The notes beneath the pieces are model-generated. The model was not told where the DNA came from, did not search any database, and saw only the letters and a program-made list of their open reading frames with translations. A DNA stretch of 52,850 nt from a virus. Lineage: Duplodnaviria > Caudoviricetes. A program made the position numbers and the translations under genes. Shown one piece after another: positions 3,799 through 52,437 of this stretch. The DNA lies in the IMG/VR virus record IMGVR_UViG_3300032271_000563, positions 1 to 52,850 of that record. One strand, written 5' to 3'. Position 1 is the first letter of the stretch; each line of letters opens with the position of its first letter.

Positions 3799-4314
3799 AT
3801 GCCTGACAAAAAGCTGACAACAACGCCGCCTAATAAACGTGGACGGCCATCAACATACACTGAACACATAGCCCAGGTCATATGTGTACGTATAGCTGAA
3901 GGGGAAAGCTTACGTAAGATAGTACTGGATGACAACATGCCCGATAGGGTGACGATTTACCGTTGGTTGTTGGATAAGCCAGATTTCTGCAACCAATACG
4001 CTCGCGCACGTGAAGACCAGGCTGAGACTCACGCTGACGAAATCGTGGACATTGCTGACCAACTGCCGTACCAGATCACTGACAAAGACGGCAACATTCG
4101 GATTGATTCTGCTTACGTACAGTGGCAAAAGAACCGCATAGACGCTCGCAAATGGGTTGCATCCAAGCTCAAGGCCACCAAGTATGGGGACGTGCTCAAA
4201 CACACTGGAGACGCGAATAACCCGCTTGTGGTGGACGTCATGGCCAAAGAGATTGTGACCAGCATGATCAAGAACGTCGAAATGAAACGTCAATTAGCCA
4301 GCAATGCAAGCTGA
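3799..4314 (+). CDS. terS: terminase small subunit (Sf6/P22-like)
   Basis: GRPSTY...ICVRIAEGESLRKI HTH, YARARE, RIDARKWVASKL; precedes terL. Confidence 0.9.
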   Translation: MPDKKLTTTPPNKRGRPSTYTEHIAQVICVRIAEGESLRKIVLDDNMPDRVTIYRWLLDKPDFCNQYARAREDQAETHADEIVDIADQLPYQITDKDGNIRIDSAYVQWQKNRIDARKWVASKLKATKYGDVLKHTGDANNPLVVDVMAKEIVTSMIKNVEMKRQLASNAS

Positions 4315-5740
4315 CATACTAGATGACATTGAGGCCAAACTAAAGGACCCAGAGATCCAGGAGACGCTGTCCAAGCTGGCGCCTGAGGACCTGGCCGCAT
4401 TCCAGTGGCGCATGAACTGGTTAGCAAGCGCTCACGATCACCAGATCGAGCCTACGGGGGAGTGGTGGTCCATATGGGCTGTCATTGCAGGCAGGGGGGC
4501 GGGTAAATCGAGGCTGGCCGCGGAGAATATGGCATGGTGGGCCTGGAGTATCCCTAAGTCACGCTGGCTTGTAGCGGCCCCCACAAGCGCCGACATACGC
4601 GGTACTTGCTTTGAGGGTGAGTCTGGCCTGCTTGCTGTCATCCCTGAAATACTGATCAAAGACTACAACAAAAGTATTAGCCAGATTACGTTGATCAATG
4701 GGTCAATCATTGGCGGCATACCAGCATCTGAGCCCAACAGGTTCAGGGGGCCGCAGTGGCATGGAGCCTGGCTGGATGAGTTGGCCGCATATGACTACAT
4801 CACAGAGACGTGGGACCAGGTGCAGTTTAGCGTCCGTCTGGGCCAGCGCACCAGGATCATAGTCACTACTACCCCCAGGCCAAAAGATTTGATTGTGGAC
4901 CTGATAGGACGGGCTGGTGATGATGTTGCGTTGACAACGGCGTCCACTTACACCAACTTGATGAATTTAAGCCCAAGCTTTAAGAAACAGATTCTTAGCT
5001 ATGAGGGCACCAAGCTGGGACGCCAGGAGATTTATGCGGAGGTGCTGGACCCAGAAGACACTGGCATTATCAAGCGTTCGATGTTCAGGTTGTGGCCGCC
5101 ACACAAAGAGTTCCCCAAGTTCGAGTACATATTAAGTTCCTATGATGTTGCTTTCACGGACAAGACGCAGAACGACGCGACAGCAAATATTGTGTTTGGG
5201 GTGTTCAAGCCCACTGATGGTCCAATGAGCGTGATGGTGATCGACTGCTGGCAAGACCGCTTACAGTATCCTGACCTGCGCCCCAAGGTGATCGAAGAGT
5301 TCGAGGTGGTCTACGGTGAGGGCAAAGACAAGAAGAGGGTTGACTTGATCCTGGTGGAGGACAAAGCCGCGGGTATCAGCCTTATACAGGACTTGCAACG
5401 CGCTCACTTGCCTGTTCGTGGGTACAACCCAGGCCGAGCCGACAAGACGCAACGGTTGAACATTGTGTCCAACATCATTGCCGCAGGACGTGTATGGGTG
5501 CCTGAAAGCTCCAAGAACAAGGGTTACGTGCGTGATTGGGCCGAAGGGATGATAAGCCAGGTGTGTTCATTCCCTGAGTCAGCACACGACGATTACGTGG
5601 ACGCAATGACCCAGGCATTGAGGTACTTGAGGGATTCACACTGGCTGGACATTGATGGGCCCGCACCAGAAGACTATGACGAGGATGATTTGATTGACGC
5701 TGGGATGGTCAAACGTCGCGGTAATCCATACGCTCAATGA
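4304..5740 (+). CDS. terL: terminase large subunit
   Basis: Walker A GRGAGKS, Walker B AWLDE, TTTPRP coupling motif, nuclease SYDVAF and HDDYVDA. Confidence 0.95.
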   Translation: MQADILDDIEAKLKDPEIQETLSKLAPEDLAAFQWRMNWLASAHDHQIEPTGEWWSIWAVIAGRGAGKSRLAAENMAWWAWSIPKSRWLVAAPTSADIRGTCFEGESGLLAVIPEILIKDYNKSISQITLINGSIIGGIPASEPNRFRGPQWHGAWLDELAAYDYITETWDQVQFSVRLGQRTRIIVTTTPRPKDLIVDLIGRAGDDVALTTASTYTNLMNLSPSFKKQILSYEGTKLGRQEIYAEVLDPEDTGIIKRSMFRLWPPHKEFPKFEYILSSYDVAFTDKTQNDATANIVFGVFKPTDGPMSVMVIDCWQDRLQYPDLRPKVIEEFEVVYGEGKDKKRVDLILVEDKAAGISLIQDLQRAHLPVRGYNPGRADKTQRLNIVSNIIAAGRVWVPESSKNKGYVRDWAEGMISQVCSFPESAHDDYVDAMTQALRYLRDSHWLDIDGPAPEDYDEDDLIDAGMVKRRGNPYAQ

Positions 5741-5809: not shown

Positions 5810-8800
5810 ATGCCTGAAGGTTTACTTAGCGGTGTTCTACCCGCCTTATATTCTGCTGGAGACTATGCCAAGCGCCAGGTCAAAAACATTGCCTCTGACC
5901 CATTAGGCGTCATACAGCAGTCTTTGGGGCAAATGACCGATACCCGTAAACGGTTTGATGATTTAGCCCGTATGGCCTACGGTGACCCCAAGAATCCTGC
6001 AAAAGTTACAAACAAAGCCGCGCACGATCTGCTCCAAACAATGGCCACAGAACAAATGCTCAACATGAACATGGGCGTGTCTGGTGTGGTCAAACCACTG
6101 AAAGGTGGCGCCTGGCTGGACAAAACAGTAGATCGCATGATTGATGACATGAGGCCAATGTATTCAATAGACGATAAGTTGTCGTTAGAAAAGCAATTAA
6201 AAGGATACCAAGATTACGTAGAGCAAAATAAAAATTTACCTAATGCTGATTTAACTCATGTTGAGGCAGGAATAAGAGACATTGAAGACTTGCTCAAACG
6301 ACTGCCTGGTTATTCAGCAGTGCATGAATGGTTGAATAAGAACTTGCGTAATTATGTCAAGAATGAGATGGGCACACCTTTTGACCCATTGCGTAAGCAA
6401 GCTGATGAAAAAACTAAGATTCACCTTGAGCCAGATCAATTAGCACACCAACCTTACATTGAGGGTGTTAAGAATAGAAGGGAAGAAGTGGGTATGCCTG
6501 TTGAGGGTATGGCCAAAACCCCTATGGGTAAGTCATGGGAAGATCGTGCTGATTTGCACATTGAAAGTCAACCTGCATCTTATTACCAAAACAAACCATC
6601 GTATGTTGCTGATTTTGGACAATTTGGTTCTAACAAGTTTCATACTGAAGAAGAGGCTAAAAAATCAATTGAAAAATGGCATAAAGCTATTAGTAATTTA
6701 AGTGCAAATGGACCTCTTCGTAAAGTTGTACCAACAATTCAAAGAACAGGGCCCATGGTAGAACACCCATGGCTTGAAAAGAAAGCACCTAATGAACCCA
6801 TTTACAACCTTGATGGTGGACAGGCATTAAACTTCAGGCCAGTTACCGAAACATTGTTAAATGACATATTTGAAGGCAGGTTACCTGCTGAAAGCTTAAA
6901 AAATGTATCTGTGGCTCAAGCAGTGGCCAGGCATTCAGACTATCAAAAGGAGTTGGCCGCACAATTGGCAAAACTTGAGGCGGAGCAACAAAAAAAGAAT
7001 TTATCAGCCAATGTACATAAAAAGTATGATGATGAACATCAATGGATTGAATTGCCCGACACAATGTCATCGGCAGAAAACAAAGAGTTTTGCAAAGGTA
7101 TAGGTAAAACCCTTGGGTTGTGTACCCAGAACGATTGGGCGGCAGAGGACTACGGCAGGCATGACGTTGGTAATCGTTTGTATGCTTTGATTGACAAAGA
7201 AGGTAAGCCCCACGCCCAAATACAAACAAAACATCGTAATTTTAATTTGCGGGACATAGCTCAATTGCCCGCTGAAGATCAGAAATTGATCAATAAGCAG
7301 GTAACAGAATGGGCCCAAAATCAAGACGAGTACCCAACACATAGTCGAGTTGAACGTGCATATTCTGATGCGGCCAAGTCATTAGGGCATCAATTGCCCA
7401 CTGATGTATTGGAAATCAAGCCACCAAGCAATGACTGGAAAGGTCAGTATTCATTAGACCGTGAAGAGAAATACCCAGGGTATCAAGAAAAGTACAAGCC
7501 GTATTTGGATGACTTTGTAAGGTCAGGCAACTATGGGGACGTGGGTGATTTGTACAACACCAATTTGTTTGATCTTAACAATGTGTCAGATTATGCTAAC
7601 AAGTTAAAATCGCATGCAAATAAAGTTGGTTTAAATTTTCCCAGGTTCATTACTAATCAAGAAAGAGATATATTAGGCGAACATTCAATACACCACCAAG
7701 TTGCTGAAGCGGTTAACAATCCAGCAATTAGACCATTTCCTGAAATTCCTGAAGAGCTTAGAAAGTATCAAGTACAACCAGAACCACCCGTACAAGAGTA
7801 CAAAGTAGGCGGAGCAGTACAGCATTTTGATGATGGTGGGGAAGTAACCAGCCAGGACGATTTAAACAAACCATTCTTTGGTAACCCCAACATTCAGCGC
7901 CAGGGTGCCGCGGCAAGAGCCAATGCGGCAGAGCGTTCGCCACTGACCCTGCCTGACCCCAGGACGTATGCGGCGGCCACTACAGCCTTATCAGTGCCTG
8001 TGAACATGGCCAACATGTTTTACGGCGGTGCCCAGTCAGTAGCTAAAAGTATTCCTGAGGCAATTAAGACGGGCCAGCCCCCAGCACCAATTGCGGAAAG
8101 ATTGGCTGAGAAGTATTTCAGTCAAAACCCTGGGATGCAACCCGACACTCCATTGGCTGAAGAATACCAGGGTAACCTTGGTAAAGCTTTAAGCTGGGTG
8201 CCACCTGTTGTAGGTGATTTGATGTTTGCCAGAAACGTGGGGGAAGTATCAAACCCCATGAAGATGATGCTTAAAGACTACATGAAGGCCAACCCGCCAT
8301 CAGTAGGATTAAGCACTAAAAATGTTGGTGAGCCCATTGGAGAGGCAATAGCACCTAAAAAAGTAGGTATCAATGTAAACCAAGACAAAGATAATTTATA
8401 TGCTGACAAAATTATCAGCGGAGAAAAAACATTTGAAACTCGAGATAGCGACTCATTGAGGCCGTATGTTGGTACCAGGGTGCCAATTATTGCCACTGGT
8501 AGTGGACCTGCAAAAGCAATAGGTGAAGTGCATTTGGGTGAGCCAATTAAAGTAACTTCCAAAGAAGAATTTGACAAATATCGAGATCAACATTTGGTGC
8601 CAGAAGGTTCAACTTTCGATATAAAAAAAGGTGGCGAAAAATGGTTGTATCCTGTGAGCCAGCCAATTAGATATGGCACTCCAAAAGATGTAGCTAAATA
8701 TGGCATTGTGGCCAGGGAAGTTTATGGCCATGAAGACGGGCTAAAAGATCAGCCATTAAAAATGGATATGAAATCAGGTGATATTACTCAGCACAACTTG

Positions 8801-11800
8801 TTGACCCAACGCGAAGAACGTCAGATCGCCAACAGCGTTGAATTGACCAAGGATGAGTTAAAGATTATCAAGGAAGGCGCCAAAGCCGCTGGAGTTCCTG
8901 TATCTGAAATAGAAGAACGTGTGCGTCAACATAAGATTGACAACCCATCTGTTGGTGATGACCCCTGGGCACAGCTTGAATTGAGCAGAATTAAACAACT
9001 CAAAGACAAGCCAGGCGAGTATGAGATTGAGTACAAAAACGTCCCATACAGTTATGACCAAGATGCCCAAGGCAAAACGATTAAGCCTGGAACGACGGAG
9101 TATGACACGCACACGACATCATTGGCTGATAAGCTGAAGAATGAAGTGGTGGACATTTACAATCGTTTTAGGGGTGGTGATGAGGCGGCAGGAAACATTA
9201 TTCGCCAGGCTGGCTGGTATAAAGAAATGCGTAGCAGGTTACGCCAAGAGTTTGGGGGCTTGGGTGACTTGTTTGCTGACCTCTTGGGGGCAACATCCCC
9301 GAACACCCCTGTCCGCGAGAACTGGAAAAACGCCGTTGACTTGATCCGCAAGGCCAGCCAGGGTGACTTTGATGCTTTGGTTCCCCAGTGGGAAGATTGG
9401 TATAAGAATGTTGAAACCCAAGAGAAGAAACTAAATTCATTCTTTGCTGGCCAGTTGGCTGAAGGTAAGACCAAGGCGGCAATTAAAAGAATGCCTGAGT
9501 TTGAATCCCAGTATGAAGAACTTAAAAAGGCTAGGGAATTCCCTGATGAACTGTTGCCTTTAAAAGACAGCGGCAAGAAGTATGGGTTCAATGGCCAAAA
9601 CGGTGTTCGCGCATTGTTGGACTTGTTTAGAGTGGTTAAAGATCCAAACGCTGACATTGGTATTGGTACCACAGCGCCCAAGGCCATAACATTTTCTGGC
9701 AACCTTATTGGATTTAAAGACCGAGCAACCATTGACGTGTGGGCGGCTCGATTGCTCCAGCGCTTGGCTGAAAAGATCCGTGTGCCCTCAATGGCAGAAA
9801 CTGGGGTAAGTGGTGCCATGCTCCCAGGCGGGACCACCACGGGCCAATTTGGCATGGGCCAAGACGTGTTTAGAAAAGCTGTGGACCTTATCCGTAAGGA
9901 CCCTGAACTGTCTAAGCTGGATGTGCTCAAAAACATATCAGACGATGACTTACAAGCTTTGATTTGGTTTAAAGAAAAAGAATTGTGGACTAAAAAGAAT
10001 TGGACGTCCGCGGCTGGTGAAGGCGGATCGTTTGAGTTTGAGGCTGACCTTGCAGGTATCAGGGACCAGGCTGAAGTCAACCGTTTGCGTAAACTGATCG
10101 ATACTGGCGTGGCCACCACCAAAAAACAAAAAGAAATGGCACAGGCAGAAATCGAAGACATAGAAGCTCATAGGATGACCCTGAGGTCCTTGATGGAGCA
10201 AGCAGTTGATTCATTGAGCCCCCATGACCAGAAAGCCATGAAGAGCCACATTGATGATTTAAACAAATCAATCACTAGGCAAAAAGCAATTCTTTCTAAG
10301 CCTGATCCTGAAGAGTTGATGCAAACTAAGAAGGGCGCCCAGGAAAAATTAAATAAGATGGTTCGTCCGTTAGAACGTTATCAAGCTGGTTTGTCGCAAC
10401 AATCGCCTGACTTTACGCCTGCTAATGCTGACCAAGCCAGGCTGGCTGATACCATGCAAAAAGCCATTTATGCGGGCGATGACGGCGCTACAGTGATGGC
10501 CAGCAAGAGTATGCCTACCTTGGGCATTTACGGCGCCCCAGAGCATTCTATTGACCTGGAGGCCATTGTTCGCCAGGGATACAACCCAATACCTTTGCTT
10601 AAAGAAATCATTACTGAGGCCCAGGCGGCTAAACAGCACAGCACGTTTTTGTCTAAGGTATTGCGTAATGATGAGCCTGTTGACCCATTGCGTCATAGGC
10701 CAGGGGTTGAGATTTACTTTAGGGAAAAGGGTGATGTCAGCAAAATACAACCAATTCTTGATGACCTGAAAAAAGAAGGCATTCAGTTTTATACTGTGAT
10801 TGTGGATGGCCGTCGTAGTCCAAATGCTTTGGCTGGACAGATTCCACCTGCTGTCGGTGTACGTTTCCAATTGGTGCCTGAGTTTGAGCAGGCATTTGAC
10901 ATCCATGATTGGTCCAAGCTTACTGATGCCCAGATTGCGGCGGAAGTAGACAAGAGGGCCATACAAATGGCTGACCTTGCCGCTACGGTGGCAAAGAAAG
11001 TTCCAGGCGTGAGCAATGCTGGACAATATTGGTACGACACCGAAGTGTTATTTGACCATCAGTATCAGGAGAGATTAAATGAAATTGAAAACTCAAGCAG
11101 AACGCCTGGCGGAAATGCTACCAGCGCTGGAGAGAAAACATGGGGCGGAAAATCCATTCGTGAAGGGGTTAAAGGAGCAATTAGTGGGCCTCCAGAGACA
11201 ACAGGATCGACGGGAACAGTACCAAGTGGGGATGCAAGCACCCCAGCGGTAGACCGCATTAGCATGTCCCACAAGGACGTGACCAAACGAGTTCCTGAAT
11301 TAACCGAGGCCGCATTAAAGGTCCAAGCTGGCTTGATGTCCCGCGCTGAATACAACGACATTGTCAACAAATATAAACCTGTACTGCCGTATACATCAGC
11401 CCCCAAGCCAGCAACTGTTAAACAAATGACCGCGGCATTGTCTGAAGATAAGCGCCCACGTTTACTTGCCCCCAGGAATTTAGAAGAGGGACACAAGGTT
11501 GGCGTAAGGTTGGACATACCATCTTATTCAAACAGCGGCACCTGGATACCTACAATCCATGAGCAAAAGGCTGGGTTCCAGGCTGGGCCAACAATTGGGT
11601 ATGACAACCATTCGCATGTAATGAATGCAGAATTTGGTGTTCAGCCTAAAGCGGCCATCAACTATGCAACGGGCAAAACGGCTAAAAACACGTTTGCTAC
11701 AATCAAAGGCGATTGGCACAAAACAACGCCTGAAAAAGCATTTGCCGACGTGCAAAAACATTTGAACAGTTCTGAATGGACGCAAGTTGGTATGGACCCA

Positions 11801-11968
11801 GAGCGCCATTCATATTTTTATGATAGAAAGACTGGATTGCCTGTGACCCATGCGGATGAGGCCATCCAGGTTGGACCGTTAGTTTTGGCTCGAAATGCAA
11901 AGAACTTATCTAAACCTGGTGATTTTTCTTATAAACGCGGCGGCTTAGTTTCACACAAAGGACATTGA
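5810..11968 (+). CDS. giant multi-domain (polyvalent-type) protein: PcfJ-like, ASCH and HhH-glycosylase-like segments
   Basis: 2052-aa ORF with GAGG RBS; YADKIISGEKTFETR (ASCH); LCTQ...LYALIDKEGKPHAQI (PcfJ-like); ATSP...PK...TIDVWAAR...LQALIW. Confidence 0.75.
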   Translation: MPEGLLSGVLPALYSAGDYAKRQVKNIASDPLGVIQQSLGQMTDTRKRFDDLARMAYGDPKNPAKVTNKAAHDLLQTMATEQMLNMNMGVSGVVKPLKGGAWLDKTVDRMIDDMRPMYSIDDKLSLEKQLKGYQDYVEQNKNLPNADLTHVEAGIRDIEDLLKRLPGYSAVHEWLNKNLRNYVKNEMGTPFDPLRKQADEKTKIHLEPDQLAHQPYIEGVKNRREEVGMPVEGMAKTPMGKSWEDRADLHIESQPASYYQNKPSYVADFGQFGSNKFHTEEEAKKSIEKWHKAISNLSANGPLRKVVPTIQRTGPMVEHPWLEKKAPNEPIYNLDGGQALNFRPVTETLLNDIFEGRLPAESLKNVSVAQAVARHSDYQKELAAQLAKLEAEQQKKNLSANVHKKYDDEHQWIELPDTMSSAENKEFCKGIGKTLGLCTQNDWAAEDYGRHDVGNRLYALIDKEGKPHAQIQTKHRNFNLRDIAQLPAEDQKLINKQVTEWAQNQDEYPTHSRVERAYSDAAKSLGHQLPTDVLEIKPPSNDWKGQYSLDREEKYPGYQEKYKPYLDDFVRSGNYGDVGDLYNTNLFDLNNVSDYANKLKSHANKVGLNFPRFITNQERDILGEHSIHHQVAEAVNNPAIRPFPEIPEELRKYQVQPEPPVQEYKVGGAVQHFDDGGEVTSQDDLNKPFFGNPNIQRQGAAARANAAERSPLTLPDPRTYAAATTALSVPVNMANMFYGGAQSVAKSIPEAIKTGQPPAPIAERLAEKYFSQNPGMQPDTPLAEEYQGNLGKALSWVPPVVGDLMFARNVGEVSNPMKMMLKDYMKANPPSVGLSTKNVGEPIGEAIAPKKVGINVNQDKDNLYADKIISGEKTFETRDSDSLRPYVGTRVPIIATGSGPAKAIGEVHLGEPIKVTSKEEFDKYRDQHLVPEGSTFDIKKGGEKWLYPVSQPIRYGTPKDVAKYGIVAREVYGHEDGLKDQPLKMDMKSGDITQHNLLTQREERQIANSVELTKDELKIIKEGAKAAGVPVSEIEERVRQHKIDNPSVGDDPWAQLELSRIKQLKDKPGEYEIEYKNVPYSYDQDAQGKTIKPGTTEYDTHTTSLADKLKNEVVDIYNRFRGGDEAAGNIIRQAGWYKEMRSRLRQEFGGLGDLFADLLGATSPNTPVRENWKNAVDLIRKASQGDFDALVPQWEDWYKNVETQEKKLNSFFAGQLAEGKTKAAIKRMPEFESQYEELKKAREFPDELLPLKDSGKKYGFNGQNGVRALLDLFRVVKDPNADIGIGTTAPKAITFSGNLIGFKDRATIDVWAARLLQRLAEKIRVPSMAETGVSGAMLPGGTTTGQFGMGQDVFRKAVDLIRKDPELSKLDVLKNISDDDLQALIWFKEKELWTKKNWTSAAGEGGSFEFEADLAGIRDQAEVNRLRKLIDTGVATTKKQKEMAQAEIEDIEAHRMTLRSLMEQAVDSLSPHDQKAMKSHIDDLNKSITRQKAILSKPDPEELMQTKKGAQEKLNKMVRPLERYQAGLSQQSPDFTPANADQARLADTMQKAIYAGDDGATVMASKSMPTLGIYGAPEHSIDLEAIVRQGYNPIPLLKEIITEAQAAKQHSTFLSKVLRNDEPVDPLRHRPGVEIYFREKGDVSKIQPILDDLKKEGIQFYTVIVDGRRSPNALAGQIPPAVGVRFQLVPEFEQAFDIHDWSKLTDAQIAAEVDKRAIQMADLAATVAKKVPGVSNAGQYWYDTEVLFDHQYQERLNEIENSSRTPGGNATSAGEKTWGGKSIREGVKGAISGPPETTGSTGTVPSGDASTPAVDRISMSHKDVTKRVPELTEAALKVQAGLMSRAEYNDIVNKYKPVLPYTSAPKPATVKQMTAALSEDKRPRLLAPRNLEEGHKVGVRLDIPSYSNSGTWIPTIHEQKAGFQAGPTIGYDNHSHVMNAEFGVQPKAAINYATGKTAKNTFATIKGDWHKTTPEKAFADVQKHLNSSEWTQVGMDPERHSYFYDRKTGLPVTHADEAIQVGPLVLARNAKNLSKPGDFSYKRGGLVSHKGH

Positions 11969-51139: not shown

Positions 51140-51523
51140 TTATAAAAGCTTTTCTGTTTCTTCCTGTAACGGAACTCTTCTAAATACTTCCAATCCCATA
51201 GACGTCATGTGGGTGGTAACTATACCAGCACCATACAACTCACAGCCTACAGTGGATGCAATGCTTTGTATGTCTTTGGGTTCAAATTCACCGTAAGGAA
51301 TTAATTTAATTTGTTTTTCCTGCAAGGTTAAAAGGTGTGGTTTTACTATGCTGGTTAACAATCCACGGGGATATTTAAATTCTTTTTTTGGCGGCAGAAT
51401 TTGCAAATCACCATGTGTATCACCATCTGGATCAATCACACAATATTTGCAATTTAAAGAGTTAAGCATTCTTAAAGCTTTAATAAATTCTTTTTTGGCA
51501 ATTTCCTGCATCATGGCCTCCAA
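51140..51523 (-). CDS. hypothetical protein
   Basis: ORF in leftward operon; true start possibly 51514 or 51511 after GGAGG. Confidence 0.65.
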   Translation of the reverse strand: MEAMMQEIAKKEFIKALRMLNSLNCKYCVIDPDGDTHGDLQILPPKKEFKYPRGLLTSIVKPHLLTLQEKQIKLIPYGEFEPKDIQSIASTVGCELYGAGIVTTHMTSMGLEVFRRVPLQEETEKLL

Positions 51524-51729
51524 ACAAAAAAGTCTAAGAGCATGACAACCACAGCAACAAAGTAAACAGCAACTAAAACTTTTTCAATTAAAGGTTGTTT
51601 TTGTTTGTTAGATTGACCAAGCAAAAAATCTTGAATGGTTTCTTCATCTTTGCTCATGGGCTTGGCTGGGGGTATGTACCCACCGCCGATTTTTATACCA
51701 GTACTGGTAACGTGATATTCTTTTTCCAA
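51511..51729 (-). CDS. small protein with C-terminal TM helix
   Basis: GGAG RBS, TTG start; VLVAVYFVAVVVMLLDFFVW. Confidence 0.6.
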   Translation of the reverse strand: MEKEYHVTSTGIKIGGGYIPPAKPMSKDEETIQDFLLGQSNKQKQPLIEKVLVAVYFVAVVVMLLDFFVWRP

Positions 51730-51765
51730 TTGTGTTCTCCATTAAACGGCATATACCGCACAAGA

Positions 51766-51794
51766 ATTTTATGTTTGTTTTAACTTTTAGTAAA
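51766..51794 (-). promoter_or_regulatory. leftward promoter with operator-like site
   Basis: TTTACT-17-TAAAAT on minus strand; TTAAC-N5-GTAAA at 51780-51794. Confidence 0.6.
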
Positions 51795-51818
51795 TATATT
51801 GTTGACTGGATTGTAGGG

Positions 51819-51847
51819 TTGTTCTTAATCATAAGTTAATGTACAAT
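51819..51847 (+). promoter_or_regulatory. rightward promoter with operator-like site
   Basis: TTGTTC-17-TACAAT; TTAAT-N5-GTTAA at 51825-51839 in the spacer. Confidence 0.6.
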
Positions 51848-51852
51848 CGATT

Positions 51853-52136
51853 GGTTGGTGAAAGCAGATGTTAAGCTGAGAAGATGAAAACTCATTCTTG
51901 ATGGAGCGAGTAGCCAACCCCAAGAAGTGTAGAGATTGGTGGGTATGAAGTCGGTCAACGGCGCTCTGAACTGCAACGTCTGGCCAGCCAGTTGTAGTTA
52001 ACGCTTTCATCCCGATGCTCCACGGGGGTCATGTCCTCAAACAGTCTCTACTCTTGTTGGCGAAACGGGTTAGTGCCGTGGCAAGAAGATATTAAAGAGT
52101 GTTGTTATGCCGCCCCTGCTTTATGGGAGCGCCAAC
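51853..52136 (+). ncRNA. three abutting structured RNA domains (leader or sRNA precursor)
   Basis: closing stems GGTTGGT/GCCAACC, GTAGAGATTG/CAGTCTCTAC, GTTGGCG/CGCCAAC, each with internal helices. Confidence 0.55.
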
Positions 52137-52156
52137 ATTTAACAAGGAATGATTGA

Positions 52157-52363
52157 ATGAAATTGAAAGAATATTTTGCTGAAGAGCCCCTGGGGGCCAT
52201 CAACGAAATGGCGAATCACCTAGGTATTACTCCATCATGGATGTCACTGTTGATCCATGGCCACAGAGTACCCAGCCCCAAGCTTGCTGTTGCAATTGAG
52301 TTTGCTACACAAGGTTTGGTTACCAGGAAAGTGTTGCGTCCAGATATTTTTTCTGTAGAATAA
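52157..52363 (+). CDS. Cro/YdaS-like HTH regulator
   Basis: MANHLGITPSWMS HTH; AVAIEFATQGLVTRKVLRPDIF signature. Confidence 0.85.
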   Translation: MKLKEYFAEEPLGAINEMANHLGITPSWMSLLIHGHRVPSPKLAVAIEFATQGLVTRKVLRPDIFSVE

Positions 52364-52368
52364 ATTTA

Positions 52369-52437
52369 GAACATGGCTAGGGTAGCTCCCGAAAAGACGA
52401 TTCGTTACCGTCCTGCCAATGTTTTTTCCAGTAACGA
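52369..52437 (+). ncRNA. c4-like three-way-junction RNA with downstream complementary site
   Basis: AACATGGC/GCCAATGTT closing stem; GGG-TAGCT-CCC and GACG-loop-CGTC arms; loop TCGTTAC complementary to GTAACGA at 52431-52437. Confidence 0.55.

Follow-up and report, generated by a model that had tools for sequence, protein, structure and literature searches.

The viral record IMGVR_UViG_3300032271_000563 is a whole linear record of 52,850 bases (completeness rated at 94%), all of which was analyzed here and is referred to as the window. Its two divergent early operons are separated by an intergenic gap of 427 bases (51730-52156), and the question raised by this locus is what the gap carries and how its contents act. 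In the original prediction, three back-to-back structured RNAs were placed at 51853-52136, where a cI repressor would be expected, and RNA-based immunity was among the roles suggested for them. The explanation that we favor, at a probability of roughly 45%, is that these RNAs are portable modules which make up the leader at the 5' end of the rightward early transcript and act on the neighboring message via a common partner.

The gap between the early operons

Pfam and PHROG scans located the genes for the small and large terminase subunits at 3799-5740 and portal, head, tail-fiber and endolysin genes on the + strand. An ORF of 2,052 aa (5810-11968, +), situated between the genes for the large terminase and the portal protein, had no PHROG match at 1e-5. 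The leftward early operon, which includes a PD-(D/E)XK exonuclease, runs on the - strand from 51729 down to 48827, and its first gene (51511-51729, 72 aa) had no family match in either scan. The rightward early operon begins with a cro-like helix-turn-helix gene of the Cro/YdaS type (52157-52363, +, 68 aa; Pfam PF15943, 6.4e-11; PHROG 35), preceded by the ribosome-binding site AAGGAA (52144-52149, +) and followed by a gene for a DUF1376 replication protein. Between these two genes is an int-alpA RNA (Rfam RF02996; 52370-52437, +; 40.5 bits against a gathering score of 35.8), ahead of the likely DUF1376 start codon (ATG, 52461), which makes it a fourth RNA element on the same transcript. One contig from a DNA run joins 52148 to 52370, i.e., it has the third module followed directly by int-alpA, without cro.

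Neither an integrase nor a cI-type repressor was found in the record by the Pfam and PHROG scans, and none of 13 divergent ORFs from related loci has a Pfam repressor domain. The premise that a cI gene should be expected here was therefore not borne out, and the modules are not supported as a substitute for a cI repressor.

A promoter-like site for the rightward transcript (51819-51847, +) comprises a -35-like TTGTTC (51819-51824), a 17-nt spacer and a -10-like TACAAT (51842-51847) that ends 5 nt upstream of the first base of the first module. This + strand site is below the threshold of the promoter scan, and so was not listed by it; related loci have TATAAT or a similar hexamer at the same place, 5-7 nt before their first module. 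Between the -35 and -10 elements (51819-51841), as at the same place in L002-L004, L024, L036 and L100, there is a conserved TTAAC-containing stretch. It is a partial palindrome in L003 and could serve the Cro-like protein as an operator. The region 51853-52136 would be the 5' untranslated region of the rightward early transcript, which continues into the cro-like gene. That it is on the + strand, is non-coding and begins at or close to the predicted start site agrees with the complex leader that had been envisaged.

Predicted fold of the leader

The minimum free energy fold of 51853-52136 (+) reproduced the three closed domains that had been described, namely module a (51853-51919), module b (approximately 51925-52055) and module c (52056-52136), with gaps of 0-5 nt between neighbors. 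The fold energy was -95.8 kcal/mol (z -2.32), which one of 200 shuffled sequences matched, compared with z -1.00 and 36 of 200 shuffles for the minus strand. Each module is predicted to fold independently and to be closed by its own stem. When a longer context was folded (51853-52200, cro included), the closing stem of c was exchanged for an extended stem of b, in which CCAA (51920-51923) pairs with UUGG (52057-52060). The UUGG segment can close either b or c, and the arrangement in three domains is thus one of two folds predicted to compete.

Module c is a conserved four-way junction

Module c (52056-52136, +) scored 101.7 bits with covariance model R1 and 90.9 bits with model R2, in both cases over 52054-52138. 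A stem of 7 bp, P1 (52056-52062 with 52130-52136), closes the junction and covaries at all seven pairs. It encloses P2 (4 bp), with the 7-nt loop L2 (NUUAGCN; GUUAGUG at 52069-52075 in the window), a variable helix, P3, and P4 (3 bp), with the loop L4 (UGCUUUAU). The linkers are two or three unpaired A residues after P1, two unpaired letters before P4, and AG before the 3' strand of P1. No tRNA or tmRNA gene was found by ARAGORN in the window or in 36 related loci, in agreement with the earlier description of c as a cloverleaf that lacks tRNA consensus loops.

A pattern scan for c returned 116 viral stretches, and 91 of the 117 sequences (window included) also have the P2 hairpin; these 91 represent 55 distinct 85-nt sequences. 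Matches in L029/031/095, L050/068/087/135, L125, L134 and L136 were rejected as chance. A covariance model was built from 37 in-register copies and run over 84 of 138 sources (the distinct copies plus L002-L021), yielding 71 matches, 68 of them distinct, in viral contigs. A weak R1 match at 2652-2734 (15 bits), inside an ORF of 282 aa, was also taken as chance. Standard pairs occupied 96.1% of the 1,211 pair cells in the 71 matches, against 35-43% when the 3' partners were slid, figures that are flattered by an alignment fitted to the model, with a margin that is still large. Fourteen of the 18 pairs were changed on both sides, and none of 500 shuffles reached the covariation score.

The alignment contains 57 G.U cells, and the fold is therefore specific to the + strand; together with the strand difference in fold energy, this agrees with the strand preference that had been read from G-U pairs. 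The same cells bear on whether the repeats act as DNA, i.e., as operators, recombination sites or an origin formed from GTTGG/CCAAC inverted repeats. A function of this kind would suit the repeated use of GTTGG...CCAAC and GGGGATTG...CAGTCCCC in the stems and the exchange of modules at these borders. However, the internal stems covary with many G.U pairs, which are A.C mismatches on the other strand, and in every locus read c has the same orientation as the genes that flank it, so that a DNA-level feature is most improbable.

The loops of c are close to invariant. L4 reads UGCUUUAU in 67 of the 68 distinct copies and L2 keeps UUAGC, an invariance that is partly ascertainment, the scan pattern having demanded the L4 letters and AGUGUUGU; copies found via b (L203, L207 and L208) or via the model (L218) keep L2 and L4 and are without AGUGUUGU. 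The sole L2 change at a position that could pair with L4 is C to U, which retains a G.U pair. The first and last letters of L2 are mostly identical (G/G in 37, U/U in 14 and C/C in 7 of 68; A/A also occurs), a co-variation that is non-Watson-Crick.

A conserved peptide, which had been named as the outcome that would speak against structured RNAs, does not account for c. Twenty of the 68 distinct copies have no open + frame, the open frames of the others are spread over three registers, and no frame is consistently open. An ORF of 41 aa in the window (52031-52156) was rejected as such a peptide, as it is not kept in relatives. In the sister strain L001 (2375-2707), a G-to-T change at window position 52155 removes the stop codon of this ORF and creates an in-frame fusion with cro, of 110 aa.

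Modules b and a

Module b (51920-52060, +; core 51925-52055) was delimited by a pattern scan, a consensus fold and pair counts. Searching with a pattern of 21 letters identified 15 viral loci, which represent 11 distinct sequences, the window among them; the consensus fold of the 11 has 44 pairs, 11 of which are changed on both sides. Pair cells were paired in 98.8% of cases, against 37-51% with the partners slid, although these figures flatter a structure derived from the same 11 sequences on which it is scored. The family is approximately 140 nt in length and is defined by a long closing stem (roughly 19 bp), the conserved stretch GAAGUCGGUCA..GG.GC.CUGAAC and two covarying hairpins, all of which are present in the window copy. 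The inner hairpin AACUGCAAC/GUUGUAGUU of the original prediction belongs to this covarying structure. Compensatory changes are thus present in b as well as in c.

Module a (51853-51919, +), which begins at the predicted transcription start, has a closing stem of 7 bp, an internal loop and an apical hairpin. Folded alone, it gave z -2.66, with 3 of 200 shuffles as good, and the GAA/AGUA internal loop noticed previously appeared as GAAA/GAGUA. Near-identical strains (L001, L222 and L223) carry the module, and strain variants convert a U.G pair to U-A at 51859/51913 in its stem. Its one independent relative, in L002, has one compensatory change in the closing stem, the same internal loop and a different apical part. 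Two viral scans and one metagenome scan returned only this strain, L002 and one chance match, and the sequence evidence for conservation of a is thin. Models R1 and R2 detect neither a nor b, and the idea that either is a disguised c was rejected; a is a rare relative that shares the outer frame of c, i.e., the closing stem and the flanking unpaired letters.

Database comparisons and processing

With Rfam 15 at gathering scores, int-alpA was the only match in the whole window, and no family matched a, b or c in 51600-52400 at E values up to 10. The only matches in 25 related loci were Betaproteobacteria-1, int-alpA and sub-threshold rows elsewhere; the single ribozyme row, a RAGATH-1 hammerhead in L075 that scored 28.8 bits where the cut-off is 56.3, lies away from the modules. 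BLAST of the 431-nt gap and two c copies against 50,697 GenBank phage records gave no match, even at E 1, and a literature search found no description of the modules. Judged by sequence comparison, b and c are two conserved RNA families absent from Rfam 15 and from GenBank phages. Mimicry of 16S rRNA, or pairing with it, was rejected, as 9, 98 and 26 of 300 shuffles aligned as well as a, b and c, respectively, and antisense alignments were no better.

These searches also bear on whether the modules are processing signals, either new self-cleaving ribozymes or substrates of RNase III, RNase P or RNase E that punctuate polycistronic transcripts. The b stem is long enough to be a candidate RNase III substrate, the modules are separated by near-zero gaps (0-1 nt) and occupy intergenic and tandem positions, and most copies of a G+C-rich class of c have ACCA after the closing stem. 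Yet a, b and c matched none of the Rfam self-cleaving ribozymes (hammerhead, twister, twister-sister, hatchet, pistol and HDV-like), nor any Rfam tRNA or RNase P substrate family, and the ARAGORN searches were likewise negative. The c stem is too short for RNase III, and several unrelated module types would hardly all be ribozymes. We consider it improbable that the modules are signals of this kind.

Modules are exchanged as cassettes

A protein search with Cro returned 21 viral loci. One (L001) is from the same strain, at 98.6% identity over the gap, and three others (L002, L003 and L004), with Cro proteins 74-77% identical, have parts of the gap in common with the window. The arrangement of modules differs among these: c precedes b in L003, L002 has a, another module and then c, and L004 has c only. 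A further locus, L200, has b alone before cro, and the model search found c in none of L005-L021.

Other loci carry the modules as units of their own. L207 has a promoter, b, c and a run of eight T residues (T8), with no ORF, and a new promoter 16 nt further on; identical promoter-b-c-T8 units are present in L210, L212 and L213. In L208 (715-1256, -), an ORF-free array of 542 nt and six modules is situated between two terminator-like hairpins, in the order b, three further module types, one repeat type and c (z -4.76, with none of 100 shuffles as good). L205 has a minimal hairpin (approximately 1262-1291, -), directly after a promoter and before b, that consists of the frame of c only (closing stem, AAAC and AUGGGAG) without P2-P4. 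A Betaproteobacteria-1 RNA (RF02932, 91-95 bits) was found at L203 1587-1704, L207 1583-1700 and L042 882-999, approximately 190 nt downstream of the b-c unit and behind its own promoter-like site; these phages therefore carry several RNA genes in a row.

Closing stems are of two alternating types, GTTGG...CCAAC and GGGGATTG...CAGTCCCC. When extended, a stem of the latter type draws on the GTTGG/CCAAC letters of the former, and neighboring modules therefore compete. This competition could be that of a riboswitch or attenuator: UUGG (52057-52060) would pair either in the extended b stem or in the closing stem of c, and downstream events would be controlled by whichever ligand or factor stabilizes one of the two folds. 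Each helix has support within its own family (b pairs 9-12 with 148-151; P1 for c), the predicted fold flips with sequence context, the competition recurs in the L208 array, and P1 followed by T8 in L207 resembles a terminator. However, the cro ribosome-binding site is in neither helix and most loci have c without b. A riboswitch would be associated with genes of one pathway, whereas the genes found downstream (TerL, Cro-like, PHROGs 1123, 13900 and 5086) are unrelated, and gene context suggests no ligand. A switch of this type is therefore unlikely.

Genomic positions of module c

Positions were counted for 67 c loci, using first copies only. A -10-like hexamer is present in 25 of the 67 and ends 5-7 nt before P1 in 23 of these 25, such that P1 begins at the likely first transcribed base. 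In 23 loci, a Shine-Dalgarno sequence and an ORF of at least 40 aa follow within 45 nt downstream; 18 loci are at the terS/terL junction, and 13 belong to a G+C-rich class located between ORFs, before small proteins (PHROG 1123 and others). The genes downstream of c (TerL, PHROGs 35, 1123, 13900 and 5086) are unrelated to one another, which argues against a gene-specific regulator.

In the terS/terL class (e.g., L032 1457-1541 and L051 1457-1541), the terS reading frame extends into c, where the UAG of L2 terminates it. Of 24 distinct copies, 22 have the L4 AUG in frame with terL, and the sixth codon, 8 nt after the GGGAG of P4, is always AUG, UUG or GUG. The spacing between GGGAG and this codon indicates that c carries the terL ribosome-binding site. 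Translation of terS would likely open the fold over the terL start, i.e., the two genes would be translationally coupled.

The positions and the loops together bear on RNA immunity of the type found in P1 c4 or P4 CI, with the modules replacing the missing cI. An early-operon leader beside divergent promoters, a cloverleaf-like fold and the lack of cI in the record are what such a system would present. An immunity determinant should, however, differ between phages and be situated only in the immunity region. L2 and L4 are the same in dozens of different phages (heteroimmunity would call for differing loops, and for loops able to pair with boxes on the transcript that carries them, and the identity of L4 in 67 of 68 copies is partly ascertainment), and the same module is found at terS/terL and before unrelated genes. 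No match to Rfam C4 (RF01695) was obtained in 51600-52400 at E values up to 10. The relatives are also without cI, and the record, in which no integrase was matched, has no recognized lysogeny genes. The proposal of RNA-based immunity is thus very unlikely to be correct.

Distribution, transcription and host

A scan of one genome per species with the c pattern returned 61 stretches, about the number expected by chance. One of these, L147, which is titled as an uncultured Burkholderiales MAG, reached a full model score; the second, L176, reached only 20.4 bits (E 0.0057). The c model found matches in 3 of 151 Burkholderiales-order genomes, one of them after a small HTH gene. L218 (1240-1587; genome G010) has divergent c sequence (36-42 bits) after an HTH ORF of 73 aa in a Burkholderiales-order chromosome, and this copy is probably in a prophage. 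The window is present in sequencing runs labeled freshwater or lake, and its host is probably a freshwater betaproteobacterium.

Additional contigs, derived from other organisms, accumulate over c in two DNA runs, with the depth there increasing from 12.7 to 88 and from 21 to 175; int-alpA shows an accumulation of such contigs as well. In an RNA-library run (X18), contigs cover 51883-52070 and 52074-52221, a weak indication of transcription given that DNA can occur in such libraries. The same run has no further contig on 51400-52850 outside 51883-52221, which is not evidence for absent transcription; nor is run X20, which is probably DNA. The contig break at 52071-52073 in X18 was considered as a cleavage site and rejected, as it falls in a stretch common to many phages.

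Proposed role of the modules

The comparisons above show the folds of the modules, their conservation, strand, portability and positions. A role on the transcript that carries them is ranked first, since about two thirds of the copies directly adjoin a start codon and many of them begin at +1. The modules would act there as RNA. Their invariant loops, L2 (NUUAGCN) and L4 (UGCUUUAU), would be recognized by one partner that all these phages share, most probably a factor of the host (e.g., an RNase, the ribosome or RNA polymerase), or else would contact each other. Through this partner, the modules would set the processing, stability or translation of the neighboring message. Loops that do not vary would be superfluous in a simple stabilizer or insulator, which counts against this explanation.

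Action in trans is ranked second, on account of the stand-alone units and ORF-free arrays, and is possible, if somewhat less probable than action on the transcript. The modules would then be decoys or sponges for host proteins, or RNA-only assemblies held together by loop-loop contacts; their leader position would serve only to ensure early, strong synthesis, and they would be cut from longer transcripts. Units with no downstream ORF on the same transcript (the L207 type, L208 and L035) fit better with a trans-acting RNA than with a leader. The shuffling of modules and the invariance of the loops are also in accord with such a role: AGC in L2 is complementary to GCU in L4, and the one substitution at a pairing position of L2 keeps the pair as G.U. 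Two reports offer precedents, in which small phage-linked motifs that were formerly regarded as cis-regulatory form kissing-loop cages (bioRxiv 10.64898/2026.07.01.735769) and GOLLD and ROOL form homo-oligomers (PMC12286853). Against this, the copies that abut a start codon have no terminator in between, the terS/terL module is translated into and supplies the Shine-Dalgarno sequence of terL, and L2 and L4, both being nearly invariant, show no covariation with each other.

A bolder version, which we regard as doubtful, is that the arrays are not ordinary leaders but a novel type of multi-domain RNA device made right after infection, either a conformational switch or a self-assembling particle, assembled from combinatorial cassettes. 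At least seven module types, framed by the two alternating kinds of closing stem, would in that case be combined, and the overlap between stems would give each array two mutually exclusive global folds. The carriers of these cassettes would be lake phages, probably of betaproteobacteria.

The leader explanation remains our preferred one, and the families are of interest beyond this locus. For very few of the structured RNAs conserved in phages has a function been established, and most known ones are from cultured hosts. In viral contigs from lakes, modules b and c occur commonly, and they recur at the start of transcripts, ahead of ribosome-binding sites and within the packaging operon; their portability and invariant loops suggest a general interaction with the RNA machinery of the host that is exploited early in infection. 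Both families are small (85 and approximately 140 nt) and have many natural variants, and can therefore be tested directly by experiment.

Comparison with known systems

The c4 RNA of P1 and P7 and the CI RNA of P4 are antisense immunity RNAs that are cut from an early leader (Rfam C4, RF01695). Like them, the modules are small structured RNAs in the leader of an early operon, each closed by a stem in which its two ends pair. They differ in having no Rfam match, in loops that are constant between phages and, for c, in locations outside the early region.

The early and late transcripts of T7 carry hairpins that are processed by RNase III (R0.3, R1.1 and others). The modules resemble these as self-contained folds that follow early promoters and lie between polycistronic genes, and the long stem of b is of suitable length for RNase III. 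However, the T7 elements are irregular single hairpins, whereas the modules are multi-helix junctions with invariant loops.

The put RNAs of HK022 and nut sites are elements of the nascent early transcript that make RNA polymerase resist terminators. The modules share with them a location just downstream of early promoters and conserved unpaired letters that a host machine could read, and L4 may resemble boxA. The architecture is different, and modules also occur at terS/terL and in units that end in a T-run; 25 of 67 c copies follow a -10-like hexamer, whereas others are internal or end in a T-run.

A catalog drawn from IMG/VR, the same data source as used here, lists more than 10,000 candidate structured RNAs, 14 of them upstream of large-terminase genes (PMC10690425). 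Modules b or c may already be among these candidates, to which the available part of that report assigns no function of the present kind. Another parallel is with the ornate RNAs associated with phages, GOLLD, ROOL and the manA motif (PMC12286853; bioRxiv 10.64898/2026.07.01.735769; PMC5737381). These too are conserved, covarying phage RNAs of no assigned function that are mostly metagenomic, and the multi-domain arrays described here reach approximately 540 nt (L208). The present modules differ in having no Rfam match and no tRNA genes nearby (36 loci), whereas GOLLD and ROOL frequently have tRNA neighbors. In place of one fixed large fold, the RNAs of this locus are small, interchangeable modules.
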